The notes beneath the pieces were generated by a model. That model was not told where the DNA came from, made no database searches, and worked only from the letters and a program-made list of their open reading frames with translations. This document shows positions 5,155-13,761 of a DNA stretch of 20,000 bases, piece by piece. This DNA comes from an uncultured virus (IMG/VR IMGVR_UViG_3300029288_000087). Lineage: Duplodnaviria; Heunggongvirae; Uroviricota; Caudoviricetes. Made by a program: the position numbers and the translations under genes. The stretch is taken from IMG/VR virus record IMGVR_UViG_3300029288_000087; one strand, given 5' to 3'. Within the stretch, counting starts at the first letter, position 1. Every line of letters begins with the position of its first letter.

Positions 5155-5784
5155 ATGGATCTGGCCTCTATTGAGCAACTCGCAAATACCATCGCTTCCA
5201 TCCCTGATACGCGGCCCGACTGGATGAAAAACGTGTGCATGGGAAATGAGGGCTGGCTATATTACAGATTCTTCCACGAGTTCATTCAAAGGCATGGGCC
5301 AGCGCGTGTTGTAGATATTGGGACTCACATGGCAGGTTCTGCTGTACACCTCGCCTGCGGCAACCCGCAGGGCCACGTCTACACAATGGACCCGGACCCG
5401 AACTCAAAGAACTGCGTCGCGCTTCTTCCGGTGAAGAACATCACGGCGTTCACGGGTACTTCCATGGCTCTGGCGGATCAAATCCGCCGGTTCGGGCCGT
5501 TCGACATCGCTGTCATCGACGGCGAACACCACATCAATCACATGTACCCAGAATACGTGTGCTACCGAAGCATGGTGAAAGACGGAGGGCTCATCTTCTT
5601 CGACGACGTGAACTATGACCAGTTCCCCAGCATGCGTATTGCCTGGGATCTCATCCCGGACCCCAAAGCGCTGCTACCTACGCTGCACTTCTCTGGGTTC
5701 GGCGTCTGCAAGGTAGACCACAGCATCCACGCCCTGGAGCTTCGGGCCGCTCTGCGGCAGAGAGAGCGAAGAGCTACGGCTTGA
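5155..5784 (+). CDS. Class I SAM-dependent methyltransferase (Methyltransf_24-like)
   Basis: VVDIGTHMAGSA, FDIAVIDGEH and GGLIFFDD motifs; AAGGAG SD. Confidence 0.88.
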   Translation: MDLASIEQLANTIASIPDTRPDWMKNVCMGNEGWLYYRFFHEFIQRHGPARVVDIGTHMAGSAVHLACGNPQGHVYTMDPDPNSKNCVALLPVKNITAFTGTSMALADQIRRFGPFDIAVIDGEHHINHMYPEYVCYRSMVKDGGLIFFDDVNYDQFPSMRIAWDLIPDPKALLPTLHFSGFGVCKVDHSIHALELRAALRQRERRATA

Positions 5785-6262
5785 TCGCCTCGAAGAATGA
5801 GTCGAGACCTTCGATGCGGTTGTCCACGATGACGTAGGACTTCCTACCGTTCTCGATCATCCACTCCCCGAACAGCACCTTGTACGCGTCGTGCGAGAAG
5901 CGCCAGCAGTCGGTCGGATACGCATGGTACCCCCATGCCCAGGCGGCGCTGATGCACAGTAGCCCACTCGGGCGAAGCACGCGATCCATCTCAAGCACGA
6001 GCTTCCATGGCATAGAGACGTGTTCCAGGCTGTTCGCTGAAACCACTGCATCCACGCTTGCGTCGGCCAGCGGGATCTTGAATGGTTCCTTCTCGACGAT
6101 GTCTACGTTCGGACCTTTCTCGATGTCGAACCCGATGTACTTCGGGCCAAACAGCCCGCGCAGGTTCCCATTTACGTCGTAGGCTCCAACATCCAGGACC
6201 ACCGCATGCTTCGGCACCTTCTTCGCGAACTCCGCTAGTCTATTGTAGCTCTGTGCGTGCAT
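5774..6262 (-). CDS. SAM-dependent methyltransferase (Methyltransf_11-like)
   Basis: VLDVGAYDVNG, DIEKGPNVDIV, SVDAVVSANSLEHV, RVLRPSGLL, HAYPTDCWRF. Confidence 0.9.
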   Translation of the reverse strand: MHAQSYNRLAEFAKKVPKHAVVLDVGAYDVNGNLRGLFGPKYIGFDIEKGPNVDIVEKEPFKIPLADASVDAVVSANSLEHVSMPWKLVLEMDRVLRPSGLLCISAAWAWGYHAYPTDCWRFSHDAYKVLFGEWMIENGRKSYVIVDNRIEGLDSFFEAIKP

Positions 6263-7055
6263 TTTCGTTCTCCCGTTTCAAAAAACCAGTTGGGTTCCAT
6301 GTAACACAGAACCGCTCCCGATCCCTGTCGCTTGCAAACTTTTTGTTTTCGGCCAGAAATGCCGCGACCGCCTCATAGGGGCCAGGAGAATGGCCGACGT
6401 TCAACCCGTGATGGCAAATCGTATCTTCCACGATCAGATAGCTGCCGCACGTTACCACGTCTCCATAGGTTCGCATCACGCTCAGCGTGTGTTCATACGT
6501 GTGCGCCGTGTCCTCAATCACGAGAACCGTCTCCGCTCCGCTGCACAGTTTCTTCACATCTCCGAATCTCGCGATGACATCCCCCTGCACCAGCTTGATT
6601 CTAGGGTGCCTCGGAACCGTCTCGTGCAGCATCGCGAAGCTCTTGTCCACACCTACGACGAAGCCCTTCCCGATGCTCTGGCACGTGTCAGCAAGCCACA
6701 GTGTTGCCCCGCCCCTGGATACACCCAGCTCGACGACAGCGTTTGGCCGAAGCTCGTACATGATCTCTCGATACGTCCACAAGTCGAACGGGTTCTTGAG
6801 TGCCACGACTCCATTGTACGCCATGAGACCGGACATCAGGCGCTCCTGGACTTTAGCGAGAGCGTCGCGTACCTTCGCCTTCTGCATCCCTCGCAGGAGC
6901 TTCAGCATATCCTTTGCGCACGCCATGACCCACATGTCAGCAGGCACGCCCACCGACTTCAGTGGCCACGGATGGCGCGGTGTGAACAACTCTGCCTCGA
7001 CAATCGGTAAAATCTCCGACACTGGCCTATCAAGCATGGCTTCCATGATTGGCAT
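6240..7055 (-). CDS. CmcI (cephalosporin hydroxylase / rhamnosyl O-methyltransferase) family methyltransferase
   Basis: KNPFDLWTYREIMYELRPNAVVELGVSRGG, VLVIEDTAHTYEH, GSYLIVEDT, GPYEAV, TWNPTGFLKR. Confidence 0.9.
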   Translation of the reverse strand: MPIMEAMLDRPVSEILPIVEAELFTPRHPWPLKSVGVPADMWVMACAKDMLKLLRGMQKAKVRDALAKVQERLMSGLMAYNGVVALKNPFDLWTYREIMYELRPNAVVELGVSRGGATLWLADTCQSIGKGFVVGVDKSFAMLHETVPRHPRIKLVQGDVIARFGDVKKLCSGAETVLVIEDTAHTYEHTLSVMRTYGDVVTCGSYLIVEDTICHHGLNVGHSPGPYEAVAAFLAENKKFASDRDRERFCVTWNPTGFLKRENENARTELQ

Positions 7056-7058
7056 GAT

Positions 7059-7796
7059 TCAACCCTTGAAATACGGGCTCGCTGGCGGAGCCCTGTGCCC
7101 ATACGCGGAGACCTCCCCGATGTGCTTGCACATGCAGGGGTGAGCGTTGAAGATTGGGATCTTGTGCAGCGCACAGGCTCGGTTGATGCCCATATCCGCG
7201 TACCAGTCCAGTGCCCCGCCATAGACCGGCAACAGCATCTTCTCGCTAATCGTCATGGCAAATTGCGACGCGACAGCAGCAGGCATGCACAGACCATGGT
7301 TGGCGTAAAAAGCAGTCGGGTACTTCCACTTCATCAGGAGATCCTCTCCGAAGCCGGTGGCATCCACCCGATCAAAGTCTTCCAGTCGATACAAGTGATG
7401 CAGAGTTATCATCCACTTGTCGCACTTGCCCGACACGACGCGCACAAGCGCTTCCACTCGCTTGTACCAATCGCGAGCCAAAATCACGTCATCCTCGAAT
7501 ACGCACCCTGGCTCACCTGTCTCCGCGATCCACTTCAGAGCCCGCACCAAATTCAGGGTCAGCCTGATGCCTCCATGCGTCGCGTCCGCGAGTTCGATTG
7601 GAGGGGTCACGTGGACATACGTGCCTTCCGGGACTGATGGTACGATATGATGATCGACGAATACCCCCATGTTCGTGGCCTGAAAAGTCGGATCTTTCTC
7701 GACCATCTCGCGCAGCGTCTGCTCGCAATATCCATACCCGATCCCTATTCTAGGAGCCGTGGTGGTTGCTGCGCGCATCATGATCTTTGTCTCCAC
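7059..7796 (-). CDS. Putative GT-A fold glycosyltransferase (GT25/GT54-like)
   Basis: N-terminal TTAPR...Y...TL, VFEDDVIL metal-binding motif, C-terminal HPCMCKHIG; operon context. Confidence 0.65.
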   Translation of the reverse strand: METKIMMRAATTTAPRIGIGYGYCEQTLREMVEKDPTFQATNMGVFVDHHIVPSVPEGTYVHVTPPIELADATHGGIRLTLNLVRALKWIAETGEPGCVFEDDVILARDWYKRVEALVRVVSGKCDKWMITLHHLYRLEDFDRVDATGFGEDLLMKWKYPTAFYANHGLCMPAAVASQFAMTISEKMLLPVYGGALDWYADMGINRACALHKIPIFNAHPCMCKHIGEVSAYGHRAPPASPYFKG

Positions 7797-7808
7797 GGAT
7801 ACCGCCTG

Positions 7809-8663
7809 TTACCACACGGTTTGCACCATCGGGTGATGTAGTAGATGTTCTCGGCTCAGTGCCTGCTCGACGTATTCTCGATACCTACCCACGTCGCGAC
7901 TGACGCGCCGACCGAACCGCTTTGGCCCATCCATGTGCAGAATCACCTTCCCAGGCGTGTCTGACATCAGGCTGTACTTTTCCGGATCCAGTTGCACAGG
8001 AGAAATGTCCGCTTCCATCGCTGCGCAGTTCATCGGAGTATTCTCAGGAAGGATCGCCAAGGCTCGCGCGTTCGGATGCGCAATACCGAACTCCGACGTG
8101 CGCTGAAACATCTGGATCACCTTCTCACACCGTCGCACAAACAAGAATGCTGCCCCGAAGTACGGCCTCCTGTTCAGTGCGTCCTGTTCTGGCAAGTTGA
8201 AGAAACTCTTCAATTCTGCACCCGAATCGGGGCAGATGTCCAGACGACTGCCAAGATCGCTTCTGCATCTGGCATGGTCGTGCCTAAGCTCTACCGTGCT
8301 TGAATGCACCTGCATGTACGAGGAGTTGTCCACTACGGCTGCCAGCCCGGTCCTGTGAGACTCCTTGATCCCTTCATGCAGCGAAGCAAGTGGCACGGTG
8401 TCCGCGTCGAGAAGCACGACCTCCCTGTCGCCTGCGCAGCTGAGTAGGTGCAACCACGATCTGGGCTTGCGAATGTAGTGCTGCGGATACTCGTCATCCA
8501 CAGGGCGGTGCTCTATCCAGTCCGGGAAGTCTCTGGCATACTTCTGGGGGCTGTAGACGATCACCGTCATATCAGGATCTGCGCGTCTCGCGCAGCATGC
8601 GCTTATCAGCGCCATGCCGACGTAGATCCCGTCCGCGTAGTACGCAAGGATCGTCTGGCTCAC
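7809..8663 (-). CDS. GT8-like glycosyltransferase
   Basis: GTG 8663 overlaps upstream stop; ILAYYADGIYVGMALIS N-terminus, VVLLDADT DxD motif, LAAVVD, ILHMDGPK. Confidence 0.75.
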   Translation of the reverse strand: MSQTILAYYADGIYVGMALISACCARRADPDMTVIVYSPQKYARDFPDWIEHRPVDDEYPQHYIRKPRSWLHLLSCAGDREVVLLDADTVPLASLHEGIKESHRTGLAAVVDNSSYMQVHSSTVELRHDHARCRSDLGSRLDICPDSGAELKSFFNLPEQDALNRRPYFGAAFLFVRRCEKVIQMFQRTSEFGIAHPNARALAILPENTPMNCAAMEADISPVQLDPEKYSLMSDTPGKVILHMDGPKRFGRRVSRDVGRYREYVEQALSREHLLHHPMVQTVW

Positions 8664-9466
8664 GCGACGCTCCGCTTCTTGAACACCGTGGTCGCGCACC
8701 CCAGCCTCTGCAACTTCTCCACAGATACTGGGCACGCGACGCCGCTGGAGCTTATCTCCCAAGCGTCGTACCCGCCCTCCATCATCTCAACACCGAACCT
8801 CTTCGCGTAGTGAGGACGCCAGCTGCACACAAAGATCGGAGGCTTCTCTGTGGATAGGATACCGGAAGCTCCCGACACGACCTCTGGTTCAGCCCCGCAC
8901 GCGCCGCAGAATATCACGTCTGGAACACTCGACAGGGCGAAGTCAAGATTCGCCACTTTCACGTCCAGCGACATCCAGTCGTCAGCGCCGCAAACGATAG
9001 ACCCTTCCATGGGAGAACGGGGCGGGCACCTGAGATCGTGACTTCCGCAGACATCGCTCACCGCGCACTCGTGTACGTCAGTGACGGCAGAGAGCCCGTT
9101 GAGCCTCAGATTATCCATCAGCAAGGGAACCAGCTGTGGGTTCGGCTCGAACGCGTCCACGTGTCCGTTCTCACCAACGAGATGAGCGAACAGCATAGTG
9201 TAGTAGCCAACGTTCGCGCCGATTTCCACGACGTGCATCCCGCGACGGATGATCCCGCACATGGCAGCTGTTATCCAGCTTTCCCAGTAGCCATCGAACA
9301 CGACATGTGGCGCAAACGTCGTGTCCGAAGAGAGCACGAACGTCTTGAACATCCCAAGCGTGTGGCAAAGCACTCTATCCGGCGGGAATGAAACCGCCCT
9401 AACTTTGCTGCGAGAGAACTCTTCAATCTTCTGAGGAGTGGGGTTGCTCAGGTAAATCGACATCAC
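8660..9466 (-). CDS. FkbM-family methyltransferase (atypical C-terminal motif)
   Basis: GYWES, VVEIGANVGYYT, GHVDAFEPNP. Start GTG 9466 or ATG 9463. Confidence 0.88.
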   Translation of the reverse strand: MMSIYLSNPTPQKIEEFSRSKVRAVSFPPDRVLCHTLGMFKTFVLSSDTTFAPHVVFDGYWESWITAAMCGIIRRGMHVVEIGANVGYYTMLFAHLVGENGHVDAFEPNPQLVPLLMDNLRLNGLSAVTDVHECAVSDVCGSHDLRCPPRSPMEGSIVCGADDWMSLDVKVANLDFALSSVPDVIFCGACGAEPEVVSGASGILSTEKPPIFVCSWRPHYAKRFGVEMMEGGYDAWEISSSGVACPVSVEKLQRLGCATTVFKKRSVA

Positions 9467-10254
9467 TTCCCCGCATTCGTCAGTGTGTCGTTGTACTCTT
9501 TCGCAGCGCGCAGAACGCTCATGTCCACCCCAACACTAGCGGCGGCAACGAGCATAGCGTTCGTATCCTTCGGCAGGCATTTCCCACCGAACCCCCTATA
9601 CCCCTTGTGGAACACGTCCAAGTGCGTCGGCCCACACATCGGGTCCACTTCCGCCGCTCGACGTATATCCTCGTACTGTGCCCCAATCGCTTGCGACATG
9701 TCGTACATCTGGTTGGCGAACGACACCTTCACCGCGTACCAGCAGTTGGCGAAATACTTGACGAGTTCTGCCTCTGTGCTTTTCATCAGCAAGACGAACC
9801 CGGCTGGCGGCAGTAGCGACAACACCCGATGAAGAACTTGAGCGTCTCTGCTGCCCGCAAACCCCACAACGTGGCGCGCGGGGTGTAGAAAGTCGTCCAC
9901 TGCTGTTGCGTCGGACAAGAACTCTGGCATGAATAGGATCGCCAAGGTAGGATGCTTGGCTTGTAGCGCCGCGGTAGTCCCCGGGGCCACGGTTGAGCGA
10001 ATGACGACGATGATGCCCTCGCGAGCGGACAGCTTGCGCACAGCATCTTCGACAGCCGACACATCGCATGCTCCATCGGCGCGTTCAGGAGTCGGCACGC
10101 ACACGAATGCGACTTGACAATCGGCAACCGCATCCCAGTCGTTGTAGCCCTTCGCCGGATCGTAGACGGACAGCTCGCATCTGCTCGCGAGCCACTCTGC
10201 CATCGCGGCCCCTACCGTGCCGTGCCCAATGACCGCTACACGCTCTGCGCTCAC
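9463..10254 (-). CDS. ugd: UDP-glucose/GDP-mannose 6-dehydrogenase family protein, short form
   Basis: VIGHGTVG Rossmann motif, FVCVPTP, IRSTVAPGTT, PEFL, AELVKYFAN, GFGGKCLPKD (catalytic Cys). Confidence 0.92.
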   Translation of the reverse strand: MSAERVAVIGHGTVGAAMAEWLASRCELSVYDPAKGYNDWDAVADCQVAFVCVPTPERADGACDVSAVEDAVRKLSAREGIIVVIRSTVAPGTTAALQAKHPTLAILFMPEFLSDATAVDDFLHPARHVVGFAGSRDAQVLHRVLSLLPPAGFVLLMKSTEAELVKYFANCWYAVKVSFANQMYDMSQAIGAQYEDIRRAAEVDPMCGPTHLDVFHKGYRGFGGKCLPKDTNAMLVAAASVGVDMSVLRAAKEYNDTLTNAGK

Positions 10255-10808
10255 GCCTGCCCCTCCGCCGCTGCCTCCGCGGGGGCCATCTGCACGAACG
10301 GCGCGGTCACCTGATACTTCGCAAACTTCTTGGACCCGATCTGCTCCACCTGCTTGCTCTCCCGAAGCTCCCGCATCGCGCGCTTCACCTGCGAGATCGA
10401 CCAGTCGAACTGTGTGGCGAGCGAGCCATGGATCTCCGCCAGCGCGACCGGCTCCGCGAACCCACTCAGGTAGCTCAGGATCTCGCGCTTCACGTCCTGC
10501 ATCGGCGCAGCCTTGGACTTGCTCACGATGACCTTGCTCTTGCCGATCACCTTCTTGGCCCGCTGCATGAGCCCAGAACGCTTCTTCTGCACCTTACCCA
10601 TCGGCTTACCGTCCCGGGCCACCTTGCGCGCCCCGCCCCGGCGATCCCCTCCCGCGTCCAGGTACATCTCGTGCAGGAACTGCTTGTGCGCCTCGCAGTG
10701 CGCCTCCGCGAGCTTGTCCGTGATCTCTTTCGAGTAGAGCGGCCTGAGCGTCGCAAAAAACAAGTCGTAGAGCGACGAACGCGCCTTCTCGATCTTCTTT
10801 TGGGACAT
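10251..10808 (-). CDS. Basic DNA-binding protein with C-terminal winged helix-turn-helix
   Basis: KREILSYL...VALAEI...SISQVKRAMRELRESKQVEQIGSKKFAKYQV is a wHTH plus wing pattern; Lys/Arg-rich linker. Confidence 0.7.
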   Translation of the reverse strand: MSQKKIEKARSSLYDLFFATLRPLYSKEITDKLAEAHCEAHKQFLHEMYLDAGGDRRGGARKVARDGKPMGKVQKKRSGLMQRAKKVIGKSKVIVSKSKAAPMQDVKREILSYLSGFAEPVALAEIHGSLATQFDWSISQVKRAMRELRESKQVEQIGSKKFAKYQVTAPFVQMAPAEAAAEGQA

Positions 10809-10816
10809 GCGAAGAA

Positions 10817-10845
10817 TGATTAGCCGAACAACAAGAATTTGTCAA
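10817..10845 (-). promoter_or_regulatory. Putative sigma70 promoter of the wHTH-glycosylation operon (leaderless)
   Basis: Perfect TTGACA (10845-10840), 17 bp, TAATCA (10822-10817), then 8 nt to ATG 10808; no SD. Confidence 0.6.
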
Positions 10846-11249
10846 CGCGCCGTCATCGCACGATAGGCGAGGAAGCCAAGGATCGCTGCGATGACCACGA
10901 CGGCTGCGCGTGGCGAGGAGGCCACGGATGCTTGGATCACAGGGGGTTGCGTGATGACGATCTCGGACTCCGTTTCGTCAGGCGGCGTCTCTTCGTCTGG
11001 GACTTCCGGCGAAAGGGACGCGTACAAGTTCGATAGGGCCTGCTCGATGGCCGAAGCGTAGTACCCGTCGATCTGAGGCTCGTCCCCGATGATGATGAGC
11101 GGCACCTGCTTGATGGCCGAGTCCTCGCCCGCGTCGTGAACGTTGACCGTGACGCCGTGGGAGGCCGGGTCCGACGCCATGATCTGCGCCTTCGCTTTTT
11201 CGCAATGCTCGCAATACGGTCGCGTAAAGATGTCGATCTGGGTTCTCAC
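10842..11249 (-). CDS. Glutaredoxin-like thiol-disulfide oxidoreductase with C-terminal membrane anchor
   Basis: IDIFTRPYCEHCEKAK (CxxC), QVPLIIIG (cis-Pro loop), acidic/Pro linker, TM AAVVVIAAILGFLAY. GTG 11249 overlaps the reconstructed ancestral SLT stop. Confidence 0.8.
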   Translation of the reverse strand: MRTQIDIFTRPYCEHCEKAKAQIMASDPASHGVTVNVHDAGEDSAIKQVPLIIIGDEPQIDGYYASAIEQALSNLYASLSPEVPDEETPPDETESEIVITQPPVIQASVASSPRAAVVVIAAILGFLAYRAMTAR

Positions 11250-11262
11250 GCGTGCACCGCCC

Positions 11263-11375
11263 GGAGGATCTTCGGGGTGAGCCCGATCATTTTTCGCTAC
11301 CAGACGCTGCCGGTGCAACATCTAATGCCGATGCATCCTTCAGGTTACCCCGAAGGACGGGTTGATCTCCCAAAG
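11263..11375 (-). ncRNA. Predicted TnpB omegaRNA (scaffold ~11375-11283 plus ~20 nt flank-derived guide)
   Basis: Overlaps tnpB 3' end/right end; GGG-AGAUCAA-CCC hairpin whose loop can pair with terminal UGAUC; GUCCUUCGGG-GUAA-CCUGAAGGAU GNRA hairpin. 5' boundary is a guess. Confidence 0.6.
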
Positions 11376-12501
11376 CTCGCAGGAAGATCCCGCGAGCGCC
11401 ATTGTAGTCTCGATCCATCGAGAGTCCCGTCTTCGCCGAGCGCACCACCTTCGAGCCGCCGAGCTTGGCGTTCACTTCACCCGTCCACGATACCGTCTTG
11501 CTCGTCCAAGCCTCGTTCTGATCGAGCACGAGCTTGCCGTACTCGAATGCCTTGTGCTTCAGAAACATCCTGAAACGGTAGTGGGCAAACGTCAGCATCG
11601 AACGCACCGACTTCGCCCGGAGCTTACGCGCACCTCGTTGCACCATCTCCTGCGTCTCGAACGGAGGCAGGATGATCACGTCGAAGCTCTTCACTAGAAA
11701 TGCCGCCACCTTGTGATGCAGCTCGTCCACGAGGTTGTGGAGCCTGCTCTGCATGTTCAGAATCGCGCGGCGCAAGTTCCGTTTTCGGAAGCGCTGCGTC
11801 TCCAGCTTGCGCCTGGAGATCAGATCGTCGATGTGCGCGCATAGCCGCTGAATCTGTCCAAAGTCACCGTCTCCGAGCTTGCCACAACCTGTCTCGGCGT
11901 AGAACGTTTGGAAGGATCGCACCCCGGGATCGAGAGCAACGACGCGCCCTTGGTTTTCGGCTGCGCATCGCTTCTGCTGTACGGGAACGATCAGAAACCA
12001 ACGCCCTCTTGCACGTACCAACCGCAGATCACCGTGTCCCTTCGGCACCTCCTCGACCATTCGGATCTCGCCCTTGGAGAGAGTCGGGTATATTCCTCCA
12101 CGACGGAATGCACTCTTCGGAATGAAACATGACTGCACGGGTTGTTTCCTGGACCTGAAGCCCACCTCTTGAAACTCGCCCGTCTCCATGAACTTGCGCT
12201 TCGCCGCCGACACCGCCCTGCACGCGTCCCTCATTGCCACGGATCGGATCTGGTAGGGCGTCTCCTCGGACCATGGCGGCAACGCCTTGAGCAGGCCCGT
12301 CTTGATCTTCTTCCAGTTCGCCTTGGTGCCGGGCGTTCGGAGGAAGGCGACCGCTGCGTTGAACGCGACGCGCGAGGTCCCGAGCCATCGGCGGAAGACG
12401 CCTGCCTGCTGGTCAGTGGGGTAGATCCGGATCTTCTTTGATTTGAGCAGCGTATCGTCTGAGGCCGTGCATTCGGCAAGAGAAGACGTGAACGATGGCA
12501 A
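11287..12501 (-). CDS. tnpB: IS607-associated RNA-guided endonuclease TnpB (Fanzor2-like)
   Basis: KSKKIRIYP N-terminus, VALDPGVRSF (RuvC-I), NEAWTSKT, MDRDYNGARGI (RuvC-III). Start uncertain (TTG 12501, CTG 12450 or GTG 12567). Confidence 0.92.
   Translation of the reverse strand: MPSFTSSLAECTASDDTLLKSKKIRIYPTDQQAGVFRRWLGTSRVAFNAAVAFLRTPGTKANWKKIKTGLLKALPPWSEETPYQIRSVAMRDACRAVSAAKRKFMETGEFQEVGFRSRKQPVQSCFIPKSAFRRGGIYPTLSKGEIRMVEEVPKGHGDLRLVRARGRWFLIVPVQQKRCAAENQGRVVALDPGVRSFQTFYAETGCGKLGDGDFGQIQRLCAHIDDLISRRKLETQRFRKRNLRRAILNMQSRLHNLVDELHHKVAAFLVKSFDVIILPPFETQEMVQRGARKLRAKSVRSMLTFAHYRFRMFLKHKAFEYGKLVLDQNEAWTSKTVSWTGEVNAKLGGSKVVRSAKTGLSMDRDYNGARGIFLRALGDQPVLRGNLKDASALDVAPAASGSEK
11297..11307. 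repeat. IS607 right-end subterminal motif, inverted copy of 12987-12997
   Basis: CTACCAGACGC (11297-11307) is the exact reverse complement of GCGTCTGGTAG (12987-12997). Confidence 0.75.
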
Positions 12502-12985
12502 GAAGATCGTCGGAAAGCTCCCGCTCGGGGCTGTGTTCAGTCTGATTGAGAACCACGAGTTCTCCACCGTTATGTTCGAGAAGATGCCCGAGAAGTTCGA
12601 CACCAAAGCGGGCAAGGCGGTCCTTGTGGGCAACCACAACCGTGAGCTTTGCTCCGCGTGCCAGTCGGTCCAGTAGGGAGAGCAATCCTTTACGCTTGAA
12701 GTTGAGCCCACTCCCGATGTCTTTGACAATTTCTGCGTTCGGGAAGCGCTGTCGCATGTAGATGATCTGTCTTGCGAGGTCATCCTTCTGCTTGGGAGAG
12801 GAGACCCGGCAGTAGCAGACAATAGCTGGAGGCAGGCCGTCCTTGACGAAGGAATCGACATCGAGAAGCCGCTGGCCAGCAGCGTTGCGCACGTGTTTGA
12901 TGAGCCCTTCATCGGCGTACTTCCGGATCGTGTTCGGGCACATGCCAAGAATCTGGCAGGCCATCCGCAGTGGAACCAACTTCAT
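12413..12985 (-). CDS. tnpA: IS607-family serine transposase TnpA
   Basis: N-terminal MerR-like HTH (ACQILGMCPNTIRKYADEG), YCRVSSPKQKDDLARQ catalytic Ser motif, DIGSGLNFKRKG, HKDRLARFG. Confidence 0.96.
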   Translation of the reverse strand: MKLVPLRMACQILGMCPNTIRKYADEGLIKHVRNAAGQRLLDVDSFVKDGLPPAIVCYCRVSSPKQKDDLARQIIYMRQRFPNAEIVKDIGSGLNFKRKGLLSLLDRLARGAKLTVVVAHKDRLARFGVELLGHLLEHNGGELVVLNQTEHSPERELSDDLLAIVHVFSCRMHGLRRYAAQIKEDPDLPH

Positions 12986-12986
12986 G

Positions 12987-13019
12987 GCGTCTGGTAGAGA
13001 ACGGTAGCATCTCGTTAGC
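12987..13019. repeat. IS607 left-end array of imperfect repeats (probable TnpA binding sites)
   Basis: CTGGTAG (12991-12997), ACGGTAG (13001-13007), TCGTTAG (13012-13018) at 10-11 bp spacing. Confidence 0.6.
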
Positions 13020-13029
13020 TATTCGTCAA
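13001..13029 (-). promoter_or_regulatory. tnpA promoter at the IS left end
   Basis: TTGACG, 17 bp, TACCGT with TGn extension; overlaps the subterminal repeats, consistent with autorepression. Confidence 0.6.
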
Positions 13030-13761
13030 CCCCCAGTGGATGTCGGCGAGCATGTACCCCACGGCCCCGAGCACGAAGAAGATGACCGCGACCTGCATCG
13101 CCCCGCTCGCCCCAGCCTGCCGAGGCGCGGACAAGCCGAGGGCGACGAAGGTGTTGGCGGCGCGCACGAAGTTCGCCACGTAGTCGTGCTGGCCGTACAT
13201 GCCCAGGATGCCAGGGCCATCAGCCATGCCGGTGTCGTTGCAGGCGCACGTCTCTGCGGGCTTCCCGCAACCGTTGTACGCCTTCACCGCCGCGAGTACC
13301 GAGCCACCGAAGTTCTTCGTCATCTTCACGATGAGGTTGCCCGCGTCGATGATCTGCTGCTCCGGGTGCTCGTTGTAGAACTGCGGCTCGTGACCGTACA
13401 TCCGGCACGTCATCGGGATGAACTGCATCAGGCCGCACGCGCCAGCGTCGCTGCACACCGTGGGGTTGCCGCCCGATTCGATCTGCATGATGCCCACAAG
13501 CCAGGACGGCGGGATGCCGTTGATCTCGGCAGCGTTCTGGATGGCCGCGCCCCAGCGGCCCCAGACGTTTGTGGCCATCTTCTGAGCGCGCGCGCTTGCG
13601 ATGTCCCAGGAGGGGAACCCCTGGCCTTCGACCTCGATCCGCCCGTCCTCCCACAGCCGGTAGGGGACGCCACAGGGATTGAACCACGCGCTCGGCATGG
13701 CCCCATCATACACGCGGGGCGCTTGTCCGAAAAGCGCCCGAGGCTGTATGCTCTCGTCCAT
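13015..13761 (-). CDS. Lytic transglycosylase (SLT domain) with C-terminal TM; last codons replaced by IS607
   Basis: AAEINGIPPSWLVGIMQIESGGNP...GACGLMQF...AVKAYNG motifs; TM VAVIFFVLGAVGYML. Alternative start ATG 13698, 6 nt after TATGAT. Confidence 0.9.
   Translation of the reverse strand: MDESIQPRALFGQAPRVYDGAMPSAWFNPCGVPYRLWEDGRIEVEGQGFPSWDIASARAQKMATNVWGRWGAAIQNAAEINGIPPSWLVGIMQIESGGNPTVCSDAGACGLMQFIPMTCRMYGHEPQFYNEHPEQQIIDAGNLIVKMTKNFGGSVLAAVKAYNGCGKPAETCACNDTGMADGPGILGMYGQHDYVANFVRAANTFVALGLSAPRQAGASGAMQVAVIFFVLGAVGYMLADIHWGLTNS

Follow-up and report, generated by a model that had tools for sequence, protein, structure and literature searches.

What kind of RNA-guided nuclease is encoded by the insertion sequence (IS) in the uncultured-virus record IMGVR_UViG_3300029288_000087 of IMG/VR, and where does its gene begin? 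The window, the stretch of 20,000 nucleotides (nt) analysed here, contains a TnpB-like open reading frame (ORF) on its minus strand, which a sequence-only reading had described as a phage-borne, Fanzor2-like TnpB with a rearranged RuvC domain and no zinc-finger cysteines. Our analysis indicates that the locus is very probably an intact IS607 element carrying an RNA-guided nuclease of the pro-Fanzor type, in which a cysteine-free hairpin would take the place of the zinc ribbon and the N-terminus would be encoded by the +1 frame of the transposase gene, tnpA. The tnpA-encoded N-terminal domain is a more notable feature than the zinc-free state.

An intact IS607 element with two overlapping genes

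The element is an intact member of the IS607 family with two overlapping genes, tnpA and tnpB, arranged as follows.

11283–13031, minus strand: the whole IS607-family element, 1,749 bp, delimited by blastn against the related locus L092
12413–12985, minus strand: tnpA, an intact IS607 serine transposase gene of 190 amino acids (aa), with a MerR-type helix-turn-helix (HTH) and a resolvase domain
11287–12912, minus strand: long form of tnpB, 541 aa from the ATG at 12912 to the stop codon TGA at 11287–11289
12413–12912, minus strand: dual-coding stretch, where frame 0 encodes TnpA and frame +1 the N-terminal extension of TnpB
12987–13001, minus strand: left-end subterminal repeat, the inverted partner of 11293–11307 (15 nt, 14/15 complementary)
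11293–11307, minus strand: right-end subterminal repeat, which doubles as the 3' arm of hairpin 2 of the presumed guide RNA

L092 is a locus in an IMG/VR record, and its TnpB is 79% identical to that of the window. In the blastn comparison, L092:2399-4148 aligned with window positions 13031–11283 at 80.8% identity over 1,752 nt; the match ends at exactly 13031 and 11283, and the flanks are unrelated. The occurrence of the same sequence in two unrelated contexts defines a 1,749-bp mobile element with discrete ends. On the left it begins GGTTGACG and on the right it finishes ...AAATGATCGG, in agreement with the ends of four identical copies from Dehalococcoidia (GGTTGTCG...GTATCGG); GG is found at both ends of the element, as it is in these four copies. 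The right-end motif GTTAGC[GA]AAAA..TATCGG is present in most loci, and motifs of the GCTAAC/GTTAGC type are found at both ends of other loci too. The subterminal repeats are probably binding sites for TnpA. Identical multi-copy versions of the element have been found in other genomes.

TnpA matches the family model NF033518 (transpos_IS607) with 166 bits against a cut-off of 110, covering positions 3–185 of 187, and it also matches Pfam Resolvase (3e-17) and a MerR profile. The partner of tnpB is a serine recombinase and not a Y1 transposase of the ISDra2 type.

A relocated glutamate in the RuvC domain

The interval 11287–12501 on the minus strand translates without stops into a TnpB-like protein of 404 aa (P0001), to which the residue numbers in this section and in the section on the zinc ribbon refer. 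It matches NCBIfam NF040570 (guided_TnpB) with 120.4 bits against a cut-off of 100, as well as the Pfam families HTH_OrfB_IS605 and PF07282, the Cas12f1-like TNB domain, the latter with 48 bits. The presumed catalytic positions were followed through 247 homologues, these being the ones that cover the finger segment, with five C-terminally truncated rows left out.

11929–11931, minus strand: codon of RuvC-I Asp191, in the motif LDPG(V); Asp in 247/247 homologues, and the next residue, Pro192, in 240/247
11512–11514, minus strand: codon of the relocated catalytic Glu330, in NEAWTSKT; Glu in 245/247 homologues
11407–11409, minus strand: codon of RuvC-III Asp365, the second Asp of DRD(YNG); Asp in 246/247 homologues

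The sequence-only reading had held that the aspartates of RuvC-I (LDPG) and RuvC-III (DRDYNG) are intact, that the canonical RuvC-II strand IILPPF lacks its glutamate, and that a glutamate is to be found instead in NEAWTSKT. All three statements are borne out. The canonical RuvC-II column in IILPPF is occupied by a proline (P279), which is itself conserved in 244 of the 247 homologues, and PPFE of the window aligns with EDLN in two canonical TnpBs of the same genome. The latter (L002 and L003, at G000:C2:123441-124085 and C2:13822-14892) have a DLG motif, EDLN and both CxxC pairs. Glu330 stands six residues ahead of the former first CxxC, and the segment NEAWTSKT aligns with NEYLTTKT of the mimivirus protein L79/ApmFz2. 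The catalytic residues of ApmFz2 are given as Asp324, Glu467 and Asp501 in the excerpted text of PMC11832414; the LDPG aspartate of the window aligns with the first of these, the glutamate of NEAWTSKT with the second and the second aspartate of DRD with the third. As judged from these alignments, the RuvC active site is rearranged and its Asp-Glu-Asp triad is complete.

The spacing of E-AWTSKT-VSWT equals the pattern ExxxxxxCxxC published for pro-Fanzors (excerpts of PMC10711439). On its motifs, TnpB belongs to the lineage defined by DPG and an alternative glutamate, for which the names pro-Fanzor and TnpB2 are used (PMC10711439 and PMC11832414, in the parts available). Relatives are found in cyanobacteria, where they are 53–56% identical, and in Chloroflexota, Latescibacterota, Poribacteria, Thiomargarita and viral contigs.

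The description of the protein as Fanzor2-like was upheld in three ways. ApmFz2 (PDB 9b0l) ranks first by phmmer (E 9e-24, versus 7e-4 for ISDra2 TnpB), the best solved match by profile search (E 9.8e-57) and the best by Foldseek (E 8.4e-24). Comparison of an AlphaFold2 model with 9b0l by VIA gave a Z score of 26.2 over 414 residues, with model residues 89–530 placed on chain residues 53–518 at 21% identity; for ISDra2 TnpB the Z score was 24.6, over about 320–340 residues starting from model residue 165.

The tnpB frame continues through tnpA

Where the gene begins is a separate matter. A start at TTG 12501 and a size of about 390–400 aa had been proposed from the sequence, and this part of the earlier reading has to be revised. 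The tnpB frame contains no stop between 12501 and 12948 and is open up to the TTG at the latter position (553 aa), so that it spans the whole of tnpA at an offset of one base (+1). In 23 of 27 non-redundant loci (TnpA identity under 85%) a start codon, ATG in 21 and GTG in 2, lies within -2 to +1 codons of ATG 12912, and at least 10 of 30 aligned long homologues begin at the ATG 12912 column. The conserved start usually comes after AGGAAG or AGGAGG, and an in-frame stop is often found five codons upstream. The window has the following candidate site.

12920–12924, minus strand: Shine-Dalgarno-like GGAAG, 7 nt upstream of ATG 12912, built from Arg-Lys codons of tnpA

In most loci AGGAAG, AGGAGG or GAGGCG occupies this Shine-Dalgarno-like position, derived from Leu-Arg-Lys/Arg codons of tnpA. 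It is thus likely that GGAAG acts as the ribosome site and that ATG 12912, about 24 codons into tnpA, is the start in use, yielding a protein of 541 aa.

Gene callers and databases disagree on this point. Homologues from Prodigal-type sources are 520–550 aa long, their extra 130–150 N-terminal residues aligning with the upstream frame of the window, whereas NCBI-named relatives are 381–420 aa long in 14 of 14 cases among the matches listed. The NCBI lengths would suit a different explanation, in which a short form of about 400 aa is the true TnpB and the open frame upstream is a by-product of the conservation of tnpA. Such a view could also appeal to the first 89 residues of the long form, which are predicted to be disordered, and to the conserved motifs of TnpA, which partly constrain the overlapping frame. 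The TTG at 12501, however, sits within a conserved block, IFxxSFTSSLAEC, and the content of the extension, as well as its behaviour at the DNA level, speak for the long form.

A second possibility, an in-frame tnpA-tnpB frameshift fusion, was considered and dropped, as it needs a +1 shift, the internal start with its Shine-Dalgarno-like site is conserved, and loci without tnpA keep the extension. At one Dehalococcoidia locus (L041 2389-4098) the first ~155 tnpA codons do continue in frame into tnpB, giving a 569-aa ORF, to be explained by a frameshift fusion or else by an indel in the assembly.

A counterpart of the Fanzor2 N-terminal domain

Two parts of the extension are conserved well enough to be compared with known proteins; residues are numbered here on the 553-aa ORF, and pLDDT denotes the predicted local distance difference test.

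12625–12678, minus strand: conserved extension segment PYWTDWHAEQSSRLWLPT, with a predicted helix; pLDDT 77–83
12550–12558, minus strand: SWF of ENSWFS, counterpart of NSWY at residues 82–85 of ApmFz2 (RuvC-R)

S131, W132 and F133 are invariant in 30/30 long forms, although the tryptophan requires a fixed wobble base in tnpA, and P91, W93 and L104 are conserved in at least 90% of the 30 aligned long forms. A search of the PDB with the extension alone by phmmer gave only a chance laccase match, and a profile search was needed; the family profile aligns SWF with NSWY, residues 82–85, of L79.

The AlphaFold2 model of the 553-aa ORF, with a mean pLDDT of 70.9 and a predicted template modelling score of 0.64, shows residues 1–89 as disordered, followed by a helix at 95–103 (pLDDT 77–83), a strand at 135–139 (~73) and the core from 166. 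When compared by VIA, model residues 89–165 are placed on chain residues 53–130 of ApmFz2; all TnpB and Cas12f rows begin near model residue 165. According to the excerpted account of ApmFz2, its RuvC-R segment (65–91) completes the RuvC fold, with Asn82 and Ser83 contacting the omega-RNA pseudoknot, and its thumb (109–130) clasps the target DNA (PMC11832414). The extension of the window protein is therefore, on alignment and model, the prokaryotic homologue of the Fanzor2 N-terminal domain. By analogy, its conserved part, PYW...LWLPT...NSWFS, would form a Fanzor2-type domain supporting RuvC, with roles in recognition of the guide-RNA pseudoknot and in clasping the target. The structured N-terminal domain of Fanzor2 was described in 2024 as unique to Fanzor2 (PMC11832414, as excerpted), and no mention of a prokaryotic counterpart was found in the portions of the literature searched.

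Two coding frames in one stretch of DNA

The loci used to follow the overlap were chosen by tblastn to the long form, taking the best 80 of 552 genome loci and the best 80 of 225 viral loci; in viral contigs a single-sequence scan found nothing, and it was an alignment scan that gave the viral loci. The genome set comprised 83 rows (82 loci and the window), of which 74 had a TnpA match, and in 69 of these 74 the two frames stood at the +1 offset. The TnpA match was intact in 44 genome loci; the tnpB frame is open over 77–100% of tnpA in 43 of them, L060 being the sole exception. Of the 70 viral loci with a TnpA match, 69 showed the +1 offset, among them the finger-bearing L166, in a record named GVMAG, and L163, in a record of 344,691 bp.

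An open frame over so much of another gene is seldom reached by chance. In the 27 non-redundant loci the +1 frame of tnpA has no stop in any case (27/27), a state which synonymous-codon shuffles (2,000 trials) reach in 0–7.6% of trials; in 20 of these loci the share is at most 0.5%. Stops number 3–19 in the +2 frame of tnpA and 7–39 in the +1 frame of the tnpB core. Wobble positions are also unusually conserved, third-position pairwise identity being 0.535 in the recombinase part of tnpA, as compared with values of 0.36 for the HTH part and 0.354 for the core of tnpB. Amino-acid identity in the +1 frame is 0.456 versus 0.287 (standard deviation 0.003) under synonymous shuffling, a test which alone cannot name the frame; that +1 is the selected one is indicated by the absence of stops and by the motifs.

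The extension also outlasts its host gene. Eighteen loci have 1–5 stops in tnpA and keep a long tnpB of 493–621 aa. In L092 the start codon of tnpA is replaced by ATA (L092 2440-2450) and one stop has been gained, and tnpB is open for 579 codons. An SWF-bearing extension is kept in L119-L121, L128, L165 and L168, where tnpA is not detectable. A truncated tnpA remnant with a stop (residues 46–178 matched) was seen in Vibrio phage F100 (L005, 2143-3760), whose finger-less tnpB is preserved in full at 493 aa with its extension, although just 437 aa of it are annotated in the record.

For comparison, nine IS607 elements from phage and archaeal-virus records were examined; the controls were drawn from phage records, as IS607 TnpA was found in only 1/92 other genomes of the phylum to which the bin of the window (G000) belongs, which gave too small a set for the purpose. 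The +1 frame of tnpA contains 13–27 stops in these controls, and their tnpB frames are open for only 0–22 codons above the annotated start. Their TnpBs lack an alternative glutamate before the finger, and five of the nine show a canonical glutamate motif of the IEDL/LEDL type. The stops in the controls indicate that the N-terminal extension is specific to the pro-Fanzor-type lineage.

Taken at the level of the DNA, the N-terminal extension is evidently under selection of its own. The invariant SWF, the wobble conservation, the long frames kept beside broken or missing tnpA genes, the match to the Fanzor2 N-terminal domain in sequence and fold, and the stops in the controls leave very little room for the short form as the true protein. 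Because tnpA of IS607 is more widely distributed, overprinting of tnpA is the most likely origin of the extension. No description of a coding overlap between tnpA and tnpB was found in the parts of PMC10711439, PMC10530073, PMC10690162, PMC11832414 and PMC13565253 that were available.

Probable repeated loss of the zinc ribbon

The second departure of the window protein from known relatives lies between Glu330 and Asp365.

11428–11493, minus strand: former zinc-ribbon segment VSWTGEVNAKLGGSKVVRSAKT, without Cys or His

It had been noted from the sequence that both CxxC pairs are replaced, and the alignment agrees: VSWT and RSAKT occupy the places of CSNC and CESC in L79, all four cysteines are absent, and the whole stretch from Glu330 to Asp365 contains neither Cys nor His. 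In the metal-free AlphaFold2 model the former ribbon segment is a hairpin with pLDDT 80–88. In place of the zinc ribbon there would thus be a hairpin free of cysteines (VSWT...RSAKT), in which a conserved tryptophan, Trp339, is kept in 170 of 189 finger-less homologues.

The accompanying claim that IS607-linked relatives normally keep the finger did not survive a count. Of the 247 homologues, 189 have at most one Cys in the segment, 56 have at least four and two are partial; among 127 representatives of 50%-identity clusters the corresponding numbers are 69, 56 and 2. Finger-less relatives include NCBI-annotated TnpBs from Moorena, Aphanothece and a Competibacteraceae metagenome-assembled genome. 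The zinc-free state is common in the group and ordinary for the clade. The search pattern of Yoon et al. (2023) demanded CxxC...CxxC (excerpts of PMC10711439), so that the search was bound to leave out finger-less proteins.

Partial fingers are represented by P0131, with CSWSGH...RCPETG, in which the first Cys of each pair is kept, and by CSWT, CSWS or CSWN forms at the viral loci L105, L108, L111 and L115. To judge from their sequences, these look like stages of stepwise decay. The history was examined on a FastTree phylogeny of 150 family members, with the two canonical TnpBs L002 and L003 as outgroup. Rather than grouping with canonical TnpB of the IS605 type, the family splits from the outgroup with a support of 100, and the window pairs with L092 with a support of 99. 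The finger state changes at least six times on this tree, with the finger present in the outgroup and in the branches that split first within the family. Several independent losses would be the simplest reading, given weak support for the backbone. As most close relatives are finger-less and the state has several origins, it may be inferred that the fold no longer needs zinc.

It could be argued instead that the former ribbon still holds a metal through other ligands, or that it requires a partner for folding, since PF07282 still matches and the segment is confidently modelled as a hairpin. This is most improbable: no Cys or His is available in the stretch, the replacements (Trp, Val, Thr and Ser) suit hydrophobic packing better than metal ligation, and the partial forms, such as CSWT and P0131, look like decay.

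The tree also bears on the suggestion that the protein is of interest for the origin of Fanzors. The lineage is related to Fanzor2; a sister relationship to the giant-virus proteins is not supported. The giant-virus rows L158, L161, L163 and L166 lie in a clade of 42 rows, nearly all of them finger-bearing except the branch of the window. On this phylogeny the zinc-free branch of the window is a cousin of giant-virus Fanzor2, neither its sister nor its ancestor.

Relation to known systems

ApmFz2/L79 of mimivirus (PDB 9b0l) shares with the window protein the DPG motif, the glutamate six residues before the finger, the RD aspartate and the N-terminal domain, and is of similar size (520 aa versus 541 aa). 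It differs in having CxxC...CxxC with bound zinc and an N-terminal nuclear localization signal, and in belonging to a virus of eukaryotes (PMC11832414, as excerpted). The window protein falls outside the definition of Fanzor2 in that its contig is of a prokaryotic type, with RecT, SSB, Dam and SLT genes, and is not that of a eukaryote or a eukaryotic virus. The pro-Fanzors of Yoon et al. (2023, NAR, PMC10711439) have the same DPG motif, alternative glutamate spacing and linkage to IS607 TnpA; as far as the excerpted text goes they are cyanobacterial and the finger was required by the search pattern, whereas the window protein is finger-less. In the RIIr clades of TnpB (Altae-Tran et al. 2023, PNAS, PMC10691335, in part) an alternative glutamate likewise replaces the canonical one. 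ISDra2 TnpB (PDB 8h1j, 8exa) has in common with the window protein a WED-REC-RuvC-TNB core and a guide RNA from the right end, but it has the canonical glutamate, a four-Cys finger, a Y1 transposase as partner and no N-terminal domain.

A parallel for the gene arrangement in a phage is a 561-aa ORF of Microcoleus phage My-WqHQDG (OR578706; L004), 37.8% identical to the window protein. Here too tnpA lies wholly within the tnpB ORF in another frame; this protein differs from that of the window in keeping both CxxC pairs, and on the tree it groups with the giant-virus rows in the clade that has the finger.

A presumed guide RNA at the right end

In TnpB and Fanzor systems the guide lies directly 3' of the RNA scaffold (PMC10711439, PMC11832414, as excerpted), and the presumed guide of the element is placed on this basis.

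11283–11371, minus strand: presumed 3' domain of the omega-RNA scaffold, a closing stem and two hairpins, overlapping the last 28 codons of tnpB
11363–11367 and 11285–11289: closing stem, GAUCA paired with UGAUC
11263–11282, minus strand: presumed guide, the flank directly 3' of the right end, GCTCACCCCGAAGATC...

The last 89 nt (11371–11283) fold with a minimum free energy of -40.6 kcal/mol (z -4.65). The same three-part layout is repeated across 35 loci, 25 of which have z below -2, and the closing stem is fully paired in 34 of 35, in several compensated versions: GAUCA/UGAUC in the window and in L092, GAUAC/GUAUC in most loci. The window has GDQ instead of the usual GDT because it carries a compensated variant of the closing stem. 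The right ends were folded one by one; RNAalifold applied to a MAFFT alignment of all 35 found only 3 pairs, since hairpin lengths differ between loci. Across the loci the 3' guide-RNA fold is preserved, with compensatory changes. The putative guide would run from 11282 downwards into the flank.

In the proposed mechanism the serine transposase encoded by tnpA would move the element. TnpB, by analogy with TnpB and Fanzor systems, would take up a guide RNA made from the 3' end of its gene together with the neighbouring flank, and would then cleave sites from which the element is missing, in this way securing its retention. The RNA-guided nuclease activity of the window TnpB is predicted from its sequence, and a nuclease-dead or regulatory derivative, its lost finger marking a new role such as RNA-guided repression, is hardly credible: inactivated TnpB derivatives do exist (Altae-Tran 2023, PMC10691335, in part), but the three triad residues are kept in 245–247 of 247 homologues, the gene still resides beside tnpA in a mobile IS607 with conserved ends and a guide-RNA fold abutting the flank, and identical multi-copy elements occur in other genomes.

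Strength and consequences of the interpretation

A number of observations tell against the interpretation of the locus as an intact, dual-coding element of this kind. The choice of loci by tblastn with the long form favours loci that have the extension. Identity is raised in the +2 frame as well (0.396 versus 0.27 under shuffling), as is expected where wobble bases are constrained. The AlphaFold2 model is middling, with parts of the extension at pLDDT 45–60 and residues 1–89 disordered, and the backbone of the FastTree phylogeny is weakly supported. A search of window positions 10500–13300 against Rfam in E-value mode gave no match, and no RNA sequencing run containing the stretch was found among those listed. 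The element is present as a single copy in its own assembly. Finally, the left-end flanks disagree (TGGG in the window, AATAA in L092), and no transposon-adjacent motif (TAM) can be read from them; an attempt to derive one was dropped, as the Dehalococcoidia copies are different again. TGGG is the TAM reported for ApmFNuc and CboIStron (PMC10530073, PMC10690162, in the parts available).

On balance, we lean towards a wider scenario, held with less assurance than the description of the locus itself. The Fanzor2 N-terminal domain would have arisen in prokaryotic IS607 elements by overprinting of tnpA; it would be needed for guide-RNA binding, lock the sequences of tnpA and tnpB together and have been inherited by giant viruses. 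Being cut off in public annotations, it may be missing from pro-Fanzor constructs that require it. The zinc ribbon would have been lost repeatedly without loss of function, giving rise to zinc-independent nucleases.

If this is correct, the N-terminal domain of Fanzor2 traces back to the second frame of a bacterial transposase gene and provides an unusually clear case of a nucleic-acid-binding domain born by overprinting. Cloning of these proteins as editors would need the long form, of ~540 aa rather than ~400. The argument that the protein makes a compact editor, put forward in the sequence-only reading, is weakened accordingly, the size being ~541 aa once the tnpA-encoded N-terminal domain is counted. 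Repeated loss of the finger with the triad kept would argue that the finger is structurally replaceable, which may be useful for engineering.

The carrier of the element

The window makes up the final 20 kb of contig C3 (134,037 bp), which belongs to a 3.57-Mb bin. The remainder of C3 contains 100 ORFs, about three quarters of which match nothing. Others encode RecT, SSB, a primase, helicases, a Dam methylase, an integrase domain, glycosyltransferases and sugar enzymes; an SLT lysin-like protein is found among the genes of C3 and the window, and no housekeeping genes were seen.

The label 'phage-borne' cannot be carried over as it stands. Profile searches of the bin contigs gave no match to terminase (PF03237) or HK97 capsid (PF05065) on C3, while Terminase_6N matches were found on 13 other contigs (C7, C8, C18, C20, C24-C26, C50, C62, C77, C119, C165 and C174) and HK97 capsid matches on four (C42, C50, C107 and C140). 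No capsid, portal or tail PHROG was found among the 100 C3 ORFs at E <= 1e-5, and no IMG/VR relatives were found for two large ORFs of C3 and the window. These results lend some weight to a carrier that is not a phage, whether a plasmid, another mobile element or a host island, with C3 perhaps mis-binned; we regard this as a serious possibility, though the less probable one. It sits poorly with the mass of unmatched ORFs alongside replication and recombination functions and without housekeeping genes, and with a tetranucleotide use that differs from that of the bin core. Moreover, the closest copy of the element, L092, is in an IMG/VR record of 119,895 bp which has terminal repeats and is rated 100% complete; this record, too, has no PF03237 match, and an 862-aa ORF of C3 has no match in it. 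The bin is also twice the size of a same-genus relative (3.57 versus 1.8 Mb), and it seems to carry many phage contigs. The carrier is likely a large phage or other mobile replicon that was swept into the bin, and a phage origin of the element is plausible.

Among the other genes of C3 is a 1,301-aa ORF (L089:8429-12334, corresponding to C3:68429-72334) with a phage-integrase (tyrosine recombinase) domain at residues 299–514 and otherwise no match. In the window, positions 5155–10254 hold a methyltransferase cluster, including two genes resembling CmcI/rhamnosyl O-methyltransferase, together with a UDP-glucose/GDP-mannose dehydrogenase-like gene; nucleotide-sugar enzymes and glycosyltransferases are found elsewhere on C3.

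Two genes adjoin the element directly. The ORF with the SLT domain (13015–13761, minus strand) has its last five codons and stop inside the left end of the IS (window 13015–13031), and the insertion has therefore replaced or supplied the 3' end of that gene. On the other side, a glutaredoxin/thioredoxin-like gene occupies 10842–11249, with a probable GTG start at 11249, 34 nt past the right end, and the presumed guide falls in its leader.

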